Shown one piece after another: positions 1,735-28,888 of a stretch of 39,828 nt of DNA; positions within the stretch are counted from its first letter, which is position 1, and each line of letters starts with the position of its first letter. The DNA is from a virus (taxonomy: Duplodnaviria > Caudoviricetes). Under the pieces are notes generated by a model, which saw only the letters and a program-made list of their open reading frames with translations, searched no databases and was not told where the DNA came from. The position numbers and the translations under genes were made by a program. The stretch covers positions 1 to 39,828 of IMG/VR virus record IMGVR_UViG_3300050190_000042. One strand, given 5' to 3'.

Positions 1735-1904
1735 GTAATAATTATCTGATTTTTTGTATAAGTTAGTTAAAAAGGGCAACATTATTTATAATTCTTTGTA
1801 AGAAATATTTGTTAATTTTCCCACCAGCTATTTCATTTTAACACAAGGGGTGTATAATTATGGACAAGAAGAAACGGTTTAAAATGATAAGGAGTGATAA
1901 GAGT

Positions 1905-2093
1905 ATGTATTCGGTAGCAACAAAAACACAAGGGGCAACTGTTTCTGACAAATTGTTAGAGTTACGAAATCGCGCAATTATTAGGATGAATTGTGCCGAT
2001 TTACGTCACACTCCCAATTTGCATGATATTACGCAGGCGAATGAAAATGCTGCGGATTTGGCAAAAGATCAATACAAGACAATAAAGGAGTAA
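1905..2093 (+). CDS. Putative antitoxin (unknown family)
   Basis: AAGGAG RBS; ends 7 bp upstream of a PemK/MazF-like gene. Confidence 0.45.
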   Translation: MYSVATKTQGATVSDKLLELRNRAIIRMNCADLRHTPNLHDITQANENAADLAKDQYKTIKE

Positions 2094-2100
2094 GTGACAG

Positions 2101-2520
2101 ATGAAATTACATAGGGGCGGAATATGGTATATTCATTTCCCTTATACTTTTGATGTAAATTATCCAAATGGCAAAAACAAATTCGTTTTAGTCTTGCAGG
2201 AAGGTGCCATTTTTAGAGATTATGATGCTGTAACCGTTTTGCTAATAACCACGGATCAAGACTGTAAAGATTATGATACGAATGTTACCATTGAATGTGG
2301 GACAACCAGAATGGCATCTGAATCGTATGCTGTTTGTGCTCAGCCATACACCATTTTAAAAAGTTATTTTGAAATAAACGGGGTATGGTGCGCTGGGAAA
2401 CTATCTCCGGAAAAATTAGATGAAGTTGATACGGCATTATATACAGGACTTTGCATGGGAGTAAATAGTCAAGCAGCAATAGAGGCAGCATATACCAGTT
2501 TCACCGGAACAATTAATTAA
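2101..2520 (+). CDS. PemK/MazF-family toxin-like protein
   Basis: RGGIWY...K..VLVLQ...V.VLLITT...S...C.Q.YTI.K...G.L...LDEVD.AL fits the PemK fold pattern. Confidence 0.7.
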   Translation: MKLHRGGIWYIHFPYTFDVNYPNGKNKFVLVLQEGAIFRDYDAVTVLLITTDQDCKDYDTNVTIECGTTRMASESYAVCAQPYTILKSYFEINGVWCAGKLSPEKLDEVDTALYTGLCMGVNSQAAIEAAYTSFTGTIN

Positions 2521-17724: not shown

Positions 17725-17781
17725 ATTAAAGGCAGTCTCTTAATTGAGGCGGTCTCTTTTTTATAAAGTAAAGACCCCCGA

Positions 17782-18156
17782 TTATTCGGAGGCCTTTAAA
17801 TGTTTCTCTGCATTTTTACGGGCGCATACTGCATCGCCAAAATCGTCAAAAAATCCTAAATAATGATTTTTCCCATCATGATAAATATAGGCTTGCCATT
17901 TCTTACTTTGAGTTGACCATCTAACTCCGATTACGCCACTTTTATTTCTTTTGCCAGGTTTACAATAAGGAGTTGTACTATTTTTTAGGCAACCGCAAGA
18001 CTTAGTATTGAGAGATACCAAGTCAACAGCAGGGATGTCAATCACATTTCCACAGTCACATTGGCATTTCCAAAAGTAGCTGCCCTGAGCTGTTTTTTTA
18101 CTAACCCTGTACAGCGCAACAAGATGTGTAAAACGCCGTTTTGTTAAATCTTTCAT
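17782..18156 (-). CDS. AP2-domain protein (HNH-AP2 family lacking the HNH)
   Basis: DLT..RF..L...WKCQCDCG...TKSCGC; NKSGVIGV.W...KWQAYI...YLG.F...A..AR..AE. Confidence 0.8.
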   Translation of the reverse strand: MKDLTKRRFTHLVALYRVSKKTAQGSYFWKCQCDCGNVIDIPAVDLVSLNTKSCGCLKNSTTPYCKPGKRNKSGVIGVRWSTQSKKWQAYIYHDGKNHYLGFFDDFGDAVCARKNAEKHLKASE

Positions 18157-18323
18157 TTTTTATATCTTTTATCTGTCGGCCACTCTGTACCCTCTGGTAT
18201 GAGCCAGTCACGGCCTATCTTTTGTGCTGCCGGTAATTTGCCACGCCTTATGATTGATCGCGCTGATGTATCACTGTGGCCGGTCTCAGCCGCCCATCGT
18301 GCGGTAGTGATTAGTTTACTCAT
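18153..18323 (-). CDS. 56-aa excisionase-type HTH DNA-binding protein
   Basis: Read by hand: MSKLITTARWAAETG...IRRGKLPAAQKIGRDWLIP; overlaps both neighbours. Confidence 0.75.
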   Translation of the reverse strand: MSKLITTARWAAETGHSDTSARSIIRRGKLPAAQKIGRDWLIPEGTEWPTDKRYKK

Positions 18324-18720
18324 TTATTAACGTCGCCTCGGCGCTGTCGCGGAGATAATATTCATCATCCTGCTCGCCTGTTTCGCTGTCCTCTTCATAA
18401 ACTTTATTGCCATCAAAATTTAATCGTTTACCATTGTCGATAGCCTTGTCACGGAGAGCTTCCCAAAACGATTCTACGGCTTCAATCGCGTTGTCGGCGA
18501 TAATATCACCGGTTACTAATTCAAGGCTCGAGTAACTATTTTTGTTTGTGCTTACAGATACTTCGTATTTCATGGTTTTATTTTCCTCCATCTCATTGAT
18601 TTTTTCGGCTTTTTTGACATAATCCTCGGCTTGCTCGGTTGTCGCAAATGCAAACATTTTTTTAATGCGTTCAGGGTCTGGGTGCTCCGTTGTTGCGCTA
18701 TAATTAATAACCTTGCTCAT
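18316..18720 (-). CDS. Hypothetical protein: YSATTEHPDPERIKKMF domain plus acidic C-terminal domain
   Basis: AGGAG RBS; internal GGAGG RBS with in-frame ATG at 18573. Confidence 0.7.
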   Translation of the reverse strand: MSKVINYSATTEHPDPERIKKMFAFATTEQAEDYVKKAEKINEMEENKTMKYEVSVSTNKNSYSSLELVTGDIIADNAIEAVESFWEALRDKAIDNGKRLNFDGNKVYEEDSETGEQDDEYYLRDSAEATLINE

Positions 18721-18768
18721 AATATACTCCTGTTGCCTGCCTCCCTTGCGGTGAGGACTTGCGGCTTG

Positions 18769-18993
18769 TTAGCCTAAAAAATGCTTAATTAATTCTGGTC
18801 TGTCTGCTCCACTTGTCAAAAAATCAACTTCGTCCGCTGCAAAATACTTTTTTAACTCGTTAATGGTACTTTTTACAGCGTCACACATTTTTGCACTATA
18901 ACCGACTTTTGCAGCGGCAACATGTGCGTCAAAAGCAACCTGAGCCTTTAAATAATTTGCGAGTGCGTCGGTCTGCTCTTTTGTTAAATCCAT
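18769..18993 (-). CDS. 74-aa hypothetical protein, first gene of accessory cassette 1
   Basis: AAAGGTGG RBS; downstream of promoter at 19037-19065. Confidence 0.7.
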   Translation of the reverse strand: MDLTKEQTDALANYLKAQVAFDAHVAAAKVGYSAKMCDAVKSTINELKKYFAADEVDFLTSGADRPELIKHFLG

Positions 18994-19036
18994 TATAAAA
19001 ACCACCTTTATTAATTTGTGTTTTGCTGATGCACTT

Positions 19037-19065
19037 ATACTATCACTGCACCGCCAACAATGCAA
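19037..19065 (-). promoter_or_regulatory. Promoter of accessory cassette 1
   Basis: TTGCAT-17-TAGTAT with extended -10 TG. Confidence 0.5.
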
Positions 19066-19310
19066 TAGGCAATTGATAATAATTGATAACTTTGTATGAT
19101 TGCACAAAAATATTTTTAAAAGTTGTGCAACATTAATTGAGGTGTTGCACAAAATGCGCAGGAGCATAACAGGGCTAAAGCCGCATAGATACAGGGTTTG
19201 TTTAAGATGGCATGTTAATAATGTTGTATGCCCGACAAAATTGTTGTTGCGTGCAAGAGATACGTACGATAGAATCATATTAGGCAATAAATTTATAGCG
19301 AGGTGAATAG

Positions 19311-23825: not shown

Positions 23826-23969
23826 TTATTTAGCAGGCTTTAGGTATTCTTCAATTGCTTTTTCTATTATTTTGCTAATTGGTACCATAGTCTTTTCCGA
23901 ATAGTCTTTGAGCTGTTTCACTAAACCTATCGGCAAAGATGTCCCGATTCGCTCTTTATTTTTTAGCAT
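23826..23969 (-). CDS. Ribbon-helix-helix regulator (47 aa)
   Basis: LKNKERIGTSL...L..YSEKT.VP.SKIIE.AI; GAGGTG RBS. Confidence 0.8.
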   Translation of the reverse strand: MLKNKERIGTSLPIGLVKQLKDYSEKTMVPISKIIEKAIEEYLKPAK

Positions 23970-23987
23970 AATTATCACCTCAAAAAC

Positions 23988-24040
23988 ATTATACCACATA
24001 ACACAAGGTATTGACAAGTAACATAACTTTATGATATAAT
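23988..24040. promoter_or_regulatory. Divergent promoters for the RHH and GIY-YIG genes
   Basis: Plus strand TTGACA-18-TATAAT (24011-24040); minus strand TG-TATAAT at 23988-23993. Confidence 0.6.
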
Positions 24041-24058
24041 ATATATGAGGTGAAAAGC

Positions 24059-24889
24059 ATGGAAGAAGAGGCCAATAAGCCATATGGTTTTATTTATATT
24101 ACTACTAACTTAATCAATGGGAAAAAGTACGTAGGGCAAAAAACATATAATAATCGTTGGAAGTGCTACTTAGGAAGTGGGAAATACTTTAAACTTGCGG
24201 TTAAGAAACACGGCAGAGAAAACTTTGTAAAAGAAATAGTTGCTATTGCATACTGCAAAGATGAACTTAACAAGTTAGAAGCAGAATATATAAAAAAATT
24301 CAATGCCGTTCAGTCTGCCGATTATTACAATGTTGCTACCGACAGTTTCCCTTCGTACATCGGGCTAAAGCATACAGAAGATTATAAAATCAAAATGAAA
24401 ATACTTAATGAAGGCAAACTGATGAGCGAAAAGTCAAAAGAAAGAATGAAAGAAAATCATTATGATGTTAGTGGGGAAAATAACCCGAACTATGGGAAAC
24501 ATTGGTCAGAAGAATGGCGTACAAATCATAGCAAAGCAATAAGCGGGGAAAATAATGTTTTATTTGGAACTCACCGCAGTGAAGAAACCAAACGGAAAAT
24601 AAGTGAATCGAATAAAGGCAAAATTTTTAGTGAGAAACACTTGCAAAATTTAAGCAAGGCTCATAAAGGGAAGGAATTAGGAAGCAGTAATCCTAAAGCT
24701 AAAAAAGTAGTTTGTTTAACTGAAAATAAGATATTTGATACTTTAAAAGATGCTGCTGAATATTATAATTGTACAAGTTCAAATATTTCCATGTGTTGTA
24801 GTGACAGAAGCCGTAAGCATGCTGGTAAACTTTCAGATGGTACAAAACTGCAATGGATGTATTATAGTGACTATTTGCTGTTAGTCTAA
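24059..24889 (+). CDS. GIY-YIG homing endonuclease with NUMOD3 repeats
   Basis: GFIYITTNLINGKKYVGQ...YLGSG; NPNYGK / HRSEETKRKIS repeats; NUMOD1-like end. Confidence 0.9.
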   Translation: MEEEANKPYGFIYITTNLINGKKYVGQKTYNNRWKCYLGSGKYFKLAVKKHGRENFVKEIVAIAYCKDELNKLEAEYIKKFNAVQSADYYNVATDSFPSYIGLKHTEDYKIKMKILNEGKLMSEKSKERMKENHYDVSGENNPNYGKHWSEEWRTNHSKAISGENNVLFGTHRSEETKRKISESNKGKIFSEKHLQNLSKAHKGKELGSSNPKAKKVVCLTENKIFDTLKDAAEYYNCTSSNISMCCSDRSRKHAGKLSDGTKLQWMYYSDYLLLV

Positions 24890-24950: not shown

Positions 24951-26363
24951 ATGTTCGATGTGAATGTGAATAAAGAAATTCTTACTAAGGTTTTTGGAAA
25001 TTTTCAACTTTCTTATCACATCAATCTCAAAATGTACCTGTATTACATGGGGGTAACGGATGGAAATACTTTGGGTATTTCTACAAATGGTTCATATGAC
25101 GATTTGGTAATTAATGAGTTTAATTTGGATGCGGAAGGTGCAGGAAACTATAATTTCGTAAATGACAGATATGGAAAAGGAATATCTACCAATTTTATTA
25201 AAAAATTCATTAAAGAAGAGGTGTCTTATAGCGTCGGAAATGATATTACTTACACCAGTCACAAGGGCGATGATAAAATCATTGAACTGTTGAGGCAAAG
25301 CACAGCCCATTGGAAAGCTGACCATGATGCAAACTTGGCGAAAAATATGTTAGTTTATTCTGCTGCTTATGAATTGTACTACATTGATAAAGATGCTCAA
25401 TTTTGCAGCCGAGTAATCAGCCCAAGACACGGTATTGCCTATACTGATAGTTGCGATAATTTAATATTTTTTCTTCATATTTTCAGACAACGCTATGATA
25501 CCAAAATGTATGTTGATATTTATACCGACAGCGAAATTATACATTGTGATGAAACATTTAACGAATTAGGACGCACTTCTCATCCTTTTGGATGTGTTCC
25601 GATAGGTATTGCAACGGTAAGTGAAGAAGGATGGTTGGATAGCATTTATAGCGATATTAAATCTCTTCAAGATGCTTATTCCAGAAATTTGAGCGACATA
25701 TCAAGCGAGATAACCGAGTTTAGGAACGCTTATCTTGTGCTCAATAACCTCGACTTGCAAGACGGTGACCTTGCCACAATGAAAAAGCAGGGCATTATGA
25801 AAACCAAAGGCAAAGACGGCTCCGCTGGATGGCTTATCAAAACTATCAACGACACTTTCATCCAAAACACTCTCACAACCCTTGAAGATAAGATGTTCCA
25901 AATTTCTTGCCACATAAACAGCAACGAGAAAATGAGCGCCAACACTTCAAGTCTGGCACTGCGCGCGCGCCTCATATCTCTTGAGGAAAAATGTAAACTC
26001 AATCAAAAAGCCCTTGCAAATTGCGTAAAAACACGGCTTCAGATGCTACTTGTTTACATGAACGGACTGAAAAACACGTCTTACGATTACAGGGACATAA
26101 AGGTCAAGTTTACGCCGAATATTCCGTCAGATGATCTGACAAATAGCACTGTTGTCACCGCTTTGGGCGATAAACTAAGCACCGAAACCGCCCTGTCACT
26201 GTTCAGTTTCATCGACAACCCCGCAAATGAAGTCAAAAAGGCACAAGCGGAACAAAAGGCAAGTAGCGTGGGCGCTGCCATATTAGAAGCTGCGAAACAG
26301 AGTACACTTCCCGCTATGCCAATGGAAAAGCCCGCCATGCCTATGATGGGGGCTAAAATGTGA
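24951..26363 (+). CDS. Portal protein, SPP1 gp6-like
   Basis: NF..K...Y..G, HPFG.VP, I.SL.DAY....SD, S.LAL, F.PN.P, LSTETAL motifs; follows terL. Confidence 0.9.
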   Translation: MFDVNVNKEILTKVFGNFQLSYHINLKMYLYYMGVTDGNTLGISTNGSYDDLVINEFNLDAEGAGNYNFVNDRYGKGISTNFIKKFIKEEVSYSVGNDITYTSHKGDDKIIELLRQSTAHWKADHDANLAKNMLVYSAAYELYYIDKDAQFCSRVISPRHGIAYTDSCDNLIFFLHIFRQRYDTKMYVDIYTDSEIIHCDETFNELGRTSHPFGCVPIGIATVSEEGWLDSIYSDIKSLQDAYSRNLSDISSEITEFRNAYLVLNNLDLQDGDLATMKKQGIMKTKGKDGSAGWLIKTINDTFIQNTLTTLEDKMFQISCHINSNEKMSANTSSLALRARLISLEEKCKLNQKALANCVKTRLQMLLVYMNGLKNTSYDYRDIKVKFTPNIPSDDLTNSTVVTALGDKLSTETALSLFSFIDNPANEVKKAQAEQKASSVGAAILEAAKQSTLPAMPMEKPAMPMMGAKM

Positions 26364-26375
26364 ACAAGGGCAAGC

Positions 26376-26403
26376 AAAAGCCCCGGATTGCTCCGAGGCC
26401 TTT
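26376..26403 (-). terminator. Terminator of the crRNA-like transcript (possibly bidirectional)
   Basis: Minus strand AAAGGCCTCGGA-GCAA-TCCGGGGCTTTT; G-U pairs favour the minus strand. Confidence 0.75.
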
Positions 26404-26437
26404 ACTTGATGTTTGCGATGTCTAAAAACATGACTAT

Positions 26438-26465
26438 GTTTCAATCCACGCTTTTTTCAAGCGAC
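26438..26465 (-). CRISPR. Solitary type I-C-like CRISPR repeat
   Basis: GTCGCTTGAAAAAAGCGTGGATTGAAAC: GTCGC start, CGCTT/AAGCG stem, GCGTGGATTGAAAC end; no second repeat or cas gene seen. Confidence 0.8.
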
Positions 26466-26470
26466 AATTT

Positions 26471-26499
26471 ATTATATCGCTTGAATTTTAAATTGTCAA
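26471..26499 (-). promoter_or_regulatory. Sigma-A promoter of the solitary repeat
   Basis: Perfect TTGACA-17-TATAAT; repeat begins 6 nt after the -10. Confidence 0.85.
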
Positions 26500-26633
26500 C
26501 ATTTTTCTTCCTTGTTCTCTTTTAATATTAGGTATTCAATTTGTGCGCCCATGCTCCGACGCTCGTGCTCTGCCTGCTTCCGGAGCATTTCAAAGATTAG
26601 ATCGTCTAACCTAAAACTACGGTGTGCTTTCAT
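26496..26633 (-). CDS. Arc-like ribbon-helix-helix protein (45 aa), Aca-like candidate
   Basis: Read by hand: MKAHRSFRLDDLIFEMLRKQAEHERRSMGAQIEYLILKENKEEKC; GAAGGA RBS. Confidence 0.75.
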   Translation of the reverse strand: MKAHRSFRLDDLIFEMLRKQAEHERRSMGAQIEYLILKENKEEKC

Positions 26634-26646
26634 TTAATCATTCCTT

Positions 26647-26886
26647 CTACATGCCTTCTGCGTCGAGCGCAACTTTGAGCGCCATTTCTTCACCAAAATC
26701 TGCAAAAGCCTTTAATGTAGGCAATACCCTTGCCAAATACGCCTCGTTACCTAAACACCCACCTTTGCCTCCCCATCCCAATGCTCCGCGCGCTTCGGCA
26801 TCAAGGCAGCGTGCATTGTTGGCTTTTAACATTTTCAACTTTTTTTCGGCGTTGGCTAATCTTTTCGCAGTTTCGTAGGTTATCAT
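26647..26886 (-). CDS. 79-aa hypothetical protein (Acr candidate)
   Basis: AAAGGTGG RBS; directly upstream of the RHH gene. Confidence 0.65.
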   Translation of the reverse strand: MITYETAKRLANAEKKLKMLKANNARCLDAEARGALGWGGKGGCLGNEAYLARVLPTLKAFADFGEEMALKVALDAEGM

Positions 26887-26987
26887 TTTTAAAACCACCT
26901 TTTAATTATTCCCTTTCGGGTTGGACCCGAATCGGCTGTCCGGGCTATTAGCCGGTATTTGCGATTGTCTCCGTTACTGCGGAGGCA

Positions 26988-27185
26988 TTAAATTATAAAT
27001 ATTTTATGCTCATCATCAACTATATCGTCTATGTCATTGTCCCCATATGTCTCCTTGTATTTTTCGGCCGATGCGATGTAATCCTCGGCTTGCTTAAGTG
27101 TCGCGAATCCAAACATTTTTTTAATGCGTTCAGGGTCTGGGTGCTCCGTTGTTGCACTGTAGTCTTTAATGTTTTCTTTCTCCAT
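26988..27185 (-). CDS. 65-aa acidic protein with YSATTEHPDPERIKKMF domain (Acr candidate)
   Basis: AAGGAG RBS; paralogous to the N terminus of 18316-18720. Confidence 0.7.
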   Translation of the reverse strand: MEKENIKDYSATTEHPDPERIKKMFGFATLKQAEDYIASAEKYKETYGDNDIDDIVDDEHKIFII

Positions 27186-27245: not shown

Positions 27246-27274
27246 ATTATATCACATTGTTATTACGATGTCAA
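27246..27274 (-). promoter_or_regulatory. Strong promoter of accessory cassette 2
   Basis: TTGACA-17-TATAAT with extended -10 TG. Confidence 0.85.
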
Positions 27275-27317: not shown

Positions 27318-27662
27318 GTGAATAAAGTTTATCAAAAAACCATTGAACAGATTAAAATTGACGGTGAAAATTACGCAAATGAGGGAATGAAAACCGTCTA
27401 TAAAGACCAAAAAGAGGCTTTAGACAAGGTTCATGCCTTTGTTGGAAAACTTTATATAAAATATGCGAAAGATGGCGTACTCAGTTTAACTTCAACGCAA
27501 AAATCAACCGTTACAGCCGAACTAAAAACCTTGTTAAAATCAATAGGCTCTGATTTGGCAAAGTCGGAGGTCGGAAAAACAACGGATATATTAAAAAAAG
27601 TATATGAAGATACTTATTACAAATCGGCTTATGTAATGGATACCGGAGGTAGTAAAAAATGA
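27318..27662 (+). CDS. Minor head protein (MuF/gp7), N-terminal part
   Basis: GGAGGTG RBS; helical; coupled to the next ORF. Confidence 0.6.
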   Translation: MNKVYQKTIEQIKIDGENYANEGMKTVYKDQKEALDKVHAFVGKLYIKYAKDGVLSLTSTQKSTVTAELKTLLKSIGSDLAKSEVGKTTDILKKVYEDTYYKSAYVMDTGGSKK

Positions 27663-28888
27663 GCGAGCCACAAATAAATACAAAATTTGATATTTTAAAG
27701 CCGGAATATGTTGATGCGGCGGTCAATGCAAAATACAAAGAAGAACTATTTAGTGACCGTATCTGGACGAATAAAGCGGATATGATTGACAAATTGCAAT
27801 CCTCAATAGTAGGTGCCATGAAAGGCGACGTAACCATTGACAAAATAGGCCAACAGATTTCAAATACATTTAATTCCACCGCTTATGAAAGTCAACGCTT
27901 AGTAAATACCGAGGTTGCAAGAGTGCAGACGCAGGCAAGCGAGGATATGGGCAGAGATACGGGCGTTGAACAGGTCATGTGGAGCGCAACACTCGAAAAT
28001 AACACATGCGACGAATGTGCGGCTTTAGATGGGAATACATATCCCATTGATGATGCGCCGGATTGCCCTGCCCACCCTGAATGTGTTTGCTGCCTTATAA
28101 ATGTGCCATATGAGGGATGGAGTCCCACAAGTCGGAAAGATAACGAAACCGGAGATATTATAGATTATACGAATTATACAGACTGGGCAAAAGAGAAAGA
28201 CGTTTCTGACAGTTTCGTAACTAACGCTTCCCAACTTCCGAAAGATGATCTTAAAATTATAGATAGCTATTCTCAGCAAGCGTATTCTCACATTAACGGT
28301 TATCTTAGAGGCGGATATGATAACCCTCCTGATTGGGTGGCCGGTTATGCCGACAAATTGGAGACAATTTTAAGCAAATCAAAATTGTCTGAAGATGTCA
28401 GTCTATATCGCGGAGGCTCTTCCAAAATATTTGGAGACCTTACTGATATTATAAAAAGTGACCCAACTCGTGCAATTGGAACTGAAATTACAGATAAAGG
28501 GTTTATGAGCACGAGTAAACAGACAGACGTCGCTGAAAAATTTGTCGGTAAACCTTCAGGTGCTGGCGGGAATCATATAATGTTGGAGATCAAAGCACCT
28601 AAGGGGTACAGTGGGTTGGAACTTGGCAAACTATCATTTCACAGCGAGGATGAAGTTATACTTAAAAATGGGACTAAAATAAAAATAACCGGTGTTGAAG
28701 ATACCCGAAAGACGATTATTCAGCAAAAAACAACTTATAAGGCAGTAAATGATTTAAGCAAACCATTAGGAAATACCCGTTTAAATAAAATGTTTGGTAT
28801 ACAATATGAACAAAAACAAGAAGCTACAATTACGGACGAACAAGTAAAGACTGGATATATTAAATTTATTGGGGAGGTGGTCAAATGA
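27659..28888 (+). CDS. MuF (SPP1 gp7-like) minor head protein fused to an ADP-ribosyltransferase toxin domain
   Basis: FSDRIW, RLVNTE.AR, TC..C..LDG, P.HP.C.C; then Y..IN.YLR, LYRG, KGFMSTS, EDEV (R-STS-ExE). Confidence 0.9.
   Translation: MSEPQINTKFDILKPEYVDAAVNAKYKEELFSDRIWTNKADMIDKLQSSIVGAMKGDVTIDKIGQQISNTFNSTAYESQRLVNTEVARVQTQASEDMGRDTGVEQVMWSATLENNTCDECAALDGNTYPIDDAPDCPAHPECVCCLINVPYEGWSPTSRKDNETGDIIDYTNYTDWAKEKDVSDSFVTNASQLPKDDLKIIDSYSQQAYSHINGYLRGGYDNPPDWVAGYADKLETILSKSKLSEDVSLYRGGSSKIFGDLTDIIKSDPTRAIGTEITDKGFMSTSKQTDVAEKFVGKPSGAGGNHIMLEIKAPKGYSGLELGKLSFHSEDEVILKNGTKIKITGVEDTRKTIIQQKTTYKAVNDLSKPLGNTRLNKMFGIQYEQKQEATITDEQVKTGYIKFIGEVVK

Follow-up and report, generated by a model that had tools for sequence, protein, structure and literature searches.

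RacrIC1, a lone type I-C repeat beside an acr gene, inhibits CRISPR–Cas systems of type I-C according to the accessible text of its report (PMC10651486). Cracr elements are described, in the available portion of a preprint (bioRxiv 10.1101/2024.10.29.618823), as viral loci in which a repeat-like and a spacer-like segment are followed by a rho-independent terminator, often beside acr genes, and CracrVA1 has exactly this arrangement of repeat, spacer and terminator. The same portion already reports type I-C and Bacillota candidates, and the systems it lists as tested for Cracr are V-A, I-E and I-F. Type I-C crlRNAs with one repeat and a 3' hairpin have also been published (bioRxiv 10.1101/2024.12.27.630466); as the available text of that preprint presents them, Cas5c cuts them to leave an 11-nt handle, their 3' end lies in the hairpin loop, and they repress varied defence promoters through ~16 bp in which positions 6 and 12 are free. 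Viral regulatory mini-arrays have been described as well (bioRxiv 2023.03.03.530964, in the part accessible).

The DNA analysed here (the window, all 39,828 nt of IMG/VR record IMGVR_UViG_3300050190_000042) is a whole temperate phage record with integrase, repressor, replication, head, tail and lysis genes. PHROGs annotation named no cas gene among its 68 ORFs, and a scan of the phage for a target of its own spacer-like segment gave a best score of 11/15, the same as the highest score among shuffles (these covered 13 kb of the window); both results agree with the sequence-only reading, which had seen neither cas genes nor a self-target. The minus-strand unit of interest begins with TTGACA (26499–26494), 17 nt, TATAAT (26476–26471) and a further 5 nt before a 28-nt repeat (26465–26438), and it closes with a stem-loop (26402–26377) that carries a GCAA loop at 26391–26388 and a U-rich tail reaching 26372 (Table 1). 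That reading had listed the promoter, the repeat with an intact handle, the segment after it and the hairpin with its U tail, and all were confirmed base for base; its assignment as a crRNA mimic of type I-C also holds, and the available crlRNA text provides a published one-repeat I-C RNA with a 3' hairpin.

Table 1. Positions of the small RNA unit, of the inserted cassette that contains it and of the flanking phage genes, in window coordinates.
Feature	Position	Strand	Remark
Portal gene, left flank of the insertion	24951..26363	+	
Terminator-like hairpin with GCAA loop and U-rich tail; its 11-bp core can extend to 16 bp	26372..26402	-	
Spacer-like segment of 35 nt, counted to the core stem of the terminator, 5' part AT-rich	26403..26437	-	
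11-nt 5' handle, predicted after Cas5c cleavage	26448-26438	-	intact
Solitary type I-C repeat-like unit of 28 nt with a 5-bp stem	26438..26465	-	
Small RNA gene promoter (TTGACA-17-TATAAT)	26471..26499	-	activity predicted
45-aa ribbon-helix-helix-like (RHH-like) protein, candidate Aca-type autorepressor	26496..26633	-	profile matches
ORF79, candidate anti-CRISPR protein with three helices, from a small family without a name	26647..26886	-	
Structured intergenic stretch	26887..26987	-	fold z -1.8
ORF65, small acidic orphan protein, candidate anti-defence protein	26988..27185	-	
Cassette promoter (TTGACA-17-TATAAT with TG extension), second perfect promoter	27246..27274	-	
MuF/minor head region, made up of two ORFs, flanking the insertion on the right	27318..28888	+	

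The promoter of the small RNA matches the consensus at 12/12 positions, making it one of three perfect sites among 46 promoter-like sites between 20000 and 33000, and the RHH stop codon shares bases with its -35 box. The pattern GTCGC-N6-16-GCGTGGATTGAAA occurred once in the window and in none of 100 shuffles. In the predicted fold the 5-bp repeat stem ends exactly at the 11-nt handle, directly 5' of it, and the 3' hairpin (-17.2 kcal/mol, z -3.96) accounts for most of the z of -5.5 that the whole RNA reaches against shuffles; a 7-bp hairpin between handle and seed is also predicted. The 3' hairpin, whose U tail is interrupted, was not reported by a terminator scanner, and an Rfam search gave no match at the RNA locus. 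As in the definition of Racr, the repeat mimic is single and intergenic and lies on a mobile element that has neither cas genes nor other repeats; as in the Cracr layout, repeat-like segment, spacer-like segment and terminator follow one another on a virus, outside cas loci. The mini-array layout of at least two repeats flanking a spacer was not found, the window having one repeat only.

We compared the unit with solitary type I-C units of bacterial cas loci. Two genome samples were used: one of Clostridia, with cas5d in 41/350 genomes (44 matches, 40 loci fetched), and one across the phylum, with cas5d in 81/301 genomes (83 matches, 80 loci fetched). A solitary I-C repeat followed by a hairpin was found in 16 of these 120 Bacillota I-C cas loci; one further candidate, in L465, was unconvincing and was dropped. 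All 16 host spacers have a TTC- or TTT-flanked site in their own locus that matches 13–15 of the 15 non-wobble seed positions, where the seven units of the Clostridia set had been picked by handle or by eye and the nine of the phylum set partly because they had a target. Each of these matches exceeds its shuffle maximum (11–13; 60 shuffles each). Several of the targets lie at the cas5 or cas3 promoter. In L287, L290, L303 and L312 the target is the cas5 leader and the GAA of the ribosome-binding site gives the PAM; the targets of L412 and L417 sit just upstream of a -35 box.

Some of these host loci have further features of their own. In L287, L290, L303, L305 and L312 the gap between cas3 and cas5 carries back-to-back promoters, with an antisense crlRNA aimed at the cas5 leader. 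In L417 (1–620) and L309 (8630–9980) the crlRNA targets are at promoters of small non-cas genes, which adjoin cas3 or lie between cas3 and cas5 and are candidates for CreTA- or CRISIS-like systems.

The geometry of the phage unit falls within that of the host units. The distance from the -10 box to the end of the handle is 33 nt, against 30–35 nt in nine host units, and its 5-bp stem compares with stems of 3–6 bp in 9 of the 15 host units folded. The GC content of the first 18 spacer nucleotides is 0.28 (0.17–0.44 in host spacers), and the ends of the phage repeat match I-C array repeats of Clostridia. Because host regulatory units show the same short stems, the short stem does not indicate decay. 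The measurements of a 28-nt repeat with a 5-bp stem in the earlier description stand, and since such dimensions are normal among host regulatory units, weight moves from a pure decoy toward a repressive guide. In its sequence, the phage unit is laid out like a host regulatory crlRNA gene. We give about an even chance to the unit encoding a Cracr-type guide that silences a promoter and also competes for Cascade, and we consider an anti-CRISPR function of either kind, Cracr or Racr, to be probable.

The decoy is possible, though we regard it as clearly the less likely case. As a Racr, the processed RNA would titrate Cas5c, Cas7 or Cascade, and the sequence of its spacer would be irrelevant. A perfect strong promoter is consistent with this, as are a seed predicted to pair with the handle and the precedent, in the accessible report of RacrIC1, of a lone I-C repeat beside an acr gene that inhibits I-C. 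Repeat length points the same way: our scan of IMG/VR for the repeat gave at least 124 loci, and among the matches listed, repeats of 29 nt or less made up 16/72 solitary entries versus 3/136 array entries, these entries not being independent and several of the 16 short ones coming from one phage family. Against a decoy, the geometry copies that of host regulatory genes that do have targets, and the host unit of L417 has a similar inverted repeat between handle and seed yet has a target. L008, L012, L033, L037, L039, L063 and their kin form a widespread phage family with a 25–27-nt solitary I-C repeat and a conserved downstream segment, and L054 has a nearly identical 29-nt repeat but was set aside for its unrelated context.

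No search produced a target for the phage spacer, which also agrees with a decoy. In the 120 cas loci the best site scored 12/15 and had no seed, and no host crlRNA with the phage seed was found beside cas genes, either in these loci or in a scan of JGI metagenomes. Matches to PAM plus seed numbered 17, 32, 4 and 7 in samples of 401, 149, 39 and 47 genomes, at or near control level, and none was judged by eye to precede a cas gene; a predicted target at the cas5 ribosome-binding site was looked for in the 149-genome order of G393 and not found (32 matches, 30 inspected). An absent target is weak evidence without the host, however, and because the host lineage was not located, the blank does not separate decoy from guide. 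The rule in the sequence-only reading that no match would support a Racr is therefore inapplicable here: the searches did not recover the host genome, and ~9–17 seed bases are enough for a regulatory guide. The full-length interference target which that reading had also envisaged was sought in JGI metagenomes, IMG/VR and the sampled genomes and was not found.

The same searches bear on two other kinds of guide. In one, the unit would be a one-repeat mini-array directed against competing phages or plasmids, acting by cleavage or repression. This is improbable: PAM plus 22 nt had 0 matches in JGI metagenomes, the 27 related phage loci contained no spacer match, and IMG/VR gave only four PAM-less 21-nt matches, with no distal match, and 44 matches to TTY plus 16 nt. 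These 44 agree with the spacer at 24/34 positions at most, include none BLASTN-similar to this phage and fall inside a rough chance range of 14–240 that assumes 60 Gb. In the other, Cascade would be redirected, either to a host promoter outside CRISPR or to genes of the phage itself. Spacer positions 14–19 read TAGACA, near a -35 box, and the I-C crlRNAs of the available preprint text repress varied defence promoters through matches of about 16 bp; the phage contains no self-target, however, and the genome-wide seed matches are indistinguishable from chance, so that we regard such redirection as very unlikely, the least probable of the readings considered.

Seed recurrence in other mobile elements argues against a spacer of irrelevant sequence and is consistent with a repressive guide. 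Scanning JGI metagenomes for handle plus seed yielded nine loci, of which five lacked repeat features, one is an array spacer, and one (L229) is a lone repeat after gyrB with no terminator. L224 and L227 are homologous phage-like contigs, each with two tandem repeat–spacer–terminator units, the second of which has its own TTGACA promoter. Their seeds equal the phage seed or differ from it by one base, and the first 10 spacer nucleotides, with position 6 free, are common to the phage unit and the L224/L227 units. The shared seed has nine specified bases, with a chance of 1 in 70,000–260,000 per handle. Because it comes from one independent family and from nine specified bases, it is suggestive only; it may be chance or may reflect the small handle–seed hairpin. 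In IMG/VR, the exact handle plus seed gave one match and a looser pattern eight, none with a repeat stem. The tandem units with variant spacers recall Cracr arrays as the available preprint text depicts them. As a separate observation, L245 and L254 contain, at about 1500–1520, a TTC-flanked 15-nt match to the second spacers of L224/L227, at the promoter or start of a transposase-like gene that we take from its motif to be an IS200/IS605 TnpA; this match may be chance.

The unit had been described as a stand-alone transcription unit. It does have its own promoter, but the description overlooked a larger inserted cassette, 954 nt long and on the minus strand, which separates portal from MuF and ends with this unit. 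The cassette runs from its promoter through ORF65, a structured gap, ORF79 and the RHH-like gene to the RNA unit. Our related set comprised 27 portal loci, 24 of which span the portal–MuF junction. The cassette genes and the repeat are absent from all 24 related junctions that reach MuF; portal and MuF are adjacent in 14 related loci, and the seven inserts read are unrelated. BLASTN of the cassette against INPHARED gave only short, weak matches. The cassette insertion is recent.

A further reading is a passenger or relic, in which a captured host regulator or repeat scar has no selected role and the hairpin is simply the terminator of cassette or portal. The cassette is present in 0/27 related loci. 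A search for the repeat in 15 virus records, mostly fragments, of 14 portal relatives and of the phage with an ORF79 homolog did not find it; these records hold one handle match, without a repeat stem, and L533 was rejected because it has no repeat stem and resembles chance. The hairpin is 9 nt away from the end of the portal gene and could act as terminator for both directions, so that it may also serve the convergent portal transcript. Against a relic stand the perfect promoter at the distance seen in host regulators and the intact handle and stem. The repeat region also occurs without differences in contigs of five other peat runs (X3, X4, X5, X6 and X7), and a 151-nt peat contig from run X5 holds a second copy behind a different promoter, TTTACA-17-TATAAT, with 35/38 positions identical from the -10 box to the handle. 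Eight listed peat-metagenome runs contain at least half of the cassette's words, and run X1 may be the source. One RNA run gave no contig, a result that bears neither way on transcription. We find a relic very improbable.

Several other features of the phage were noted in passing. Within the gap that separates ORF65 from ORF79, a stretch of 41 nt (26922–26962) recurs in other peat contigs with 3–4 differences, often at deeper coverage; it has no Rfam match and may be a small conserved RNA motif belonging to accessory operons of phages. The MuF/minor head region is split into overlapping ORFs (27318–27662 and 27659–28888, plus strand) that align in relatives as one collinear frame, and the second carries an ADP-ribosyltransferase domain (PF03496, E 2e-21) unmatched in related loci. 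Between terminase and portal (23826–24889) an RHH gene is divergent from a homing endonuclease gene, with overlapping perfect promoters, and L135 and L136 have similar RHH–endonuclease modules at other junctions. A MazF-like toxin gene with a small upstream ORF, a probable toxin–antitoxin pair, lies beside the integrase (1860–2520, plus strand). A second counter-oriented cluster of HNH, HTH and unknown ORFs (17782–19287, minus strand) has a strong hairpin at its end, at about 17765–17790.

The cassette has the layout of an acr–aca operon, with small genes and a gene for a putative DNA-binding autorepressor under a strong promoter. The RHH-like protein matches ParD_like at E 8e-5 and RHH families at E 0.01–0.06, all under curated cut-offs. 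RHH proteins can act as Aca, as the available text on Aca14 describes (bioRxiv 10.64898/2026.07.27.740549); because homing endonucleases of this phage group are likewise found with RHH genes, we treat the Aca reading as a lead only. ORF79 has four homologs among 1.84 billion representatives (57–66% identity), of which P0002 is fused to an RHH-like domain and P0008 to an HTH domain, and one homolog sits among small genes near RadC and DUF4314. In IMG/VR the single ORF79 sequence found no locus and an alignment found one, L230, whose complete record has no repeat. The predicted structure of ORF79 has three helices (pLDDT 86.5). Foldseek gave no match at E <=0.001, an Atlas search gave nothing usable, and the top VIA match (Z 8.1) was dismissed as a generic helical bundle. 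ORF65 had no homolog but itself in sequence search. No known Acr was matched by either protein, whether family, sequence or fold was compared. Racr units frequently lie less than 1 kb from acr genes, and the setting of the phage unit is Acr-like apart from this missing match. As candidates, ORF79 and ORF65 would be protein inhibitors delivered together with the RNA and autorepressed through the RHH protein.

The nearest named relative of the phage is a prophage in a Clostridium MAG, with 63% identity in terminase, 65% in capsid and 54% in portal. For this reason the host probably belongs to Clostridia or to a neighbouring Bacillota class. A portal scan of genome contigs found no match, the best portal match in the phylum sample was 50%, and the best match of a capsid scan (65%) was again the Clostridium MAG. 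The G295 family is not supported as host, with at most 44% across 69 genomes.

If the unit is a promoter-silencing guide that also competes for Cascade, we hypothesize that the strong promoter would drive an RNA from about 26465, which host Cas5c is predicted to cut at 26448; trimming in the hairpin loop would then leave a mature RNA of ~58–61 nt. Cascade loaded with this RNA might use a partial seed match to bind, without cleavage, the promoter of a host cas gene or of a guarded defence, and would simultaneously be withheld from immune crRNAs. More tentatively, and rather unlikely as a whole, the insert could be a two-armed I-C counter-defence cassette of Clostridia phages, in which ORF79 and ORF65 block Cascade or Cas3 while the RNA silences a Cascade-guarded toxin or defence promoter, the shared seed aiming at one conserved host promoter motif. 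In that arrangement ORF79 would be a candidate new Acr family that swaps stand-alone, RHH-fused and HTH-fused forms. If true, the silencing guide would be a clean type I-C case of a phage making a Cascade repressor of host defence, and an environmental Bacillota example; no tested case of this kind was found in the available portions of the literature on this class. The RNA has also served as the marker through which two candidate anti-CRISPR proteins, ORF79 and ORF65, were found. Solitary promoter-targeting I-C RNAs in at least 16/120 Bacillota cas loci suggest that the regulatory circuit is common in the phylum, and thus that the opening for phage mimicry is common too.

These comparisons with described systems draw on the parts of the cited sources that are available. 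Like RacrIC1, the unit is a solitary I-C repeat that a temperate phage carries downstream of small genes. Whereas RacrIC1 shares a transcript with acrIC5, the phage unit is served by a promoter of its own; its stem is shortened, and the 90% identity rule of SRUFinder would probably miss it. Two repeat-derived strings were absent from nine supplementary files of PMC10651486, and the unit may already be tabulated in supplements of related preprints. The Cracr candidates of the available text were defined by at least nine PAM-proximal bases in common with host CreR or CreA, and for the phage unit neither such a host element nor a target was found in the 120 cas loci or the genomes sampled. As in acr–aca operons of the kind described for Aca14, a strong promoter precedes small orphan genes with an RHH gene last; unlike those operons, the phage cassette has no known acr gene. 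Host I-C crlRNAs, in the text available, have a partial promoter match and a TTC PAM and reside in cas loci beside their targets, whereas the phage unit is carried by a phage without cas genes, and its predicted mature RNA of 58–61 nt compares with 49–50 nt reported for host crlRNAs. With CRISIS regulators (bioRxiv 10.1101/2024.12.27.630466) and CreR/CreA (bioRxiv 10.1101/2023.03.10.532045), as the accessible parts of their reports present them, it shares one repeat, an 11-nt handle and a hairpin replacing the second repeat. The class is already covered by Racr (2023) and Cracr, type I-C included, and its principle is published; the main value of this unit lies in the ORF79/ORF65/RHH cassette and in the shared seed.
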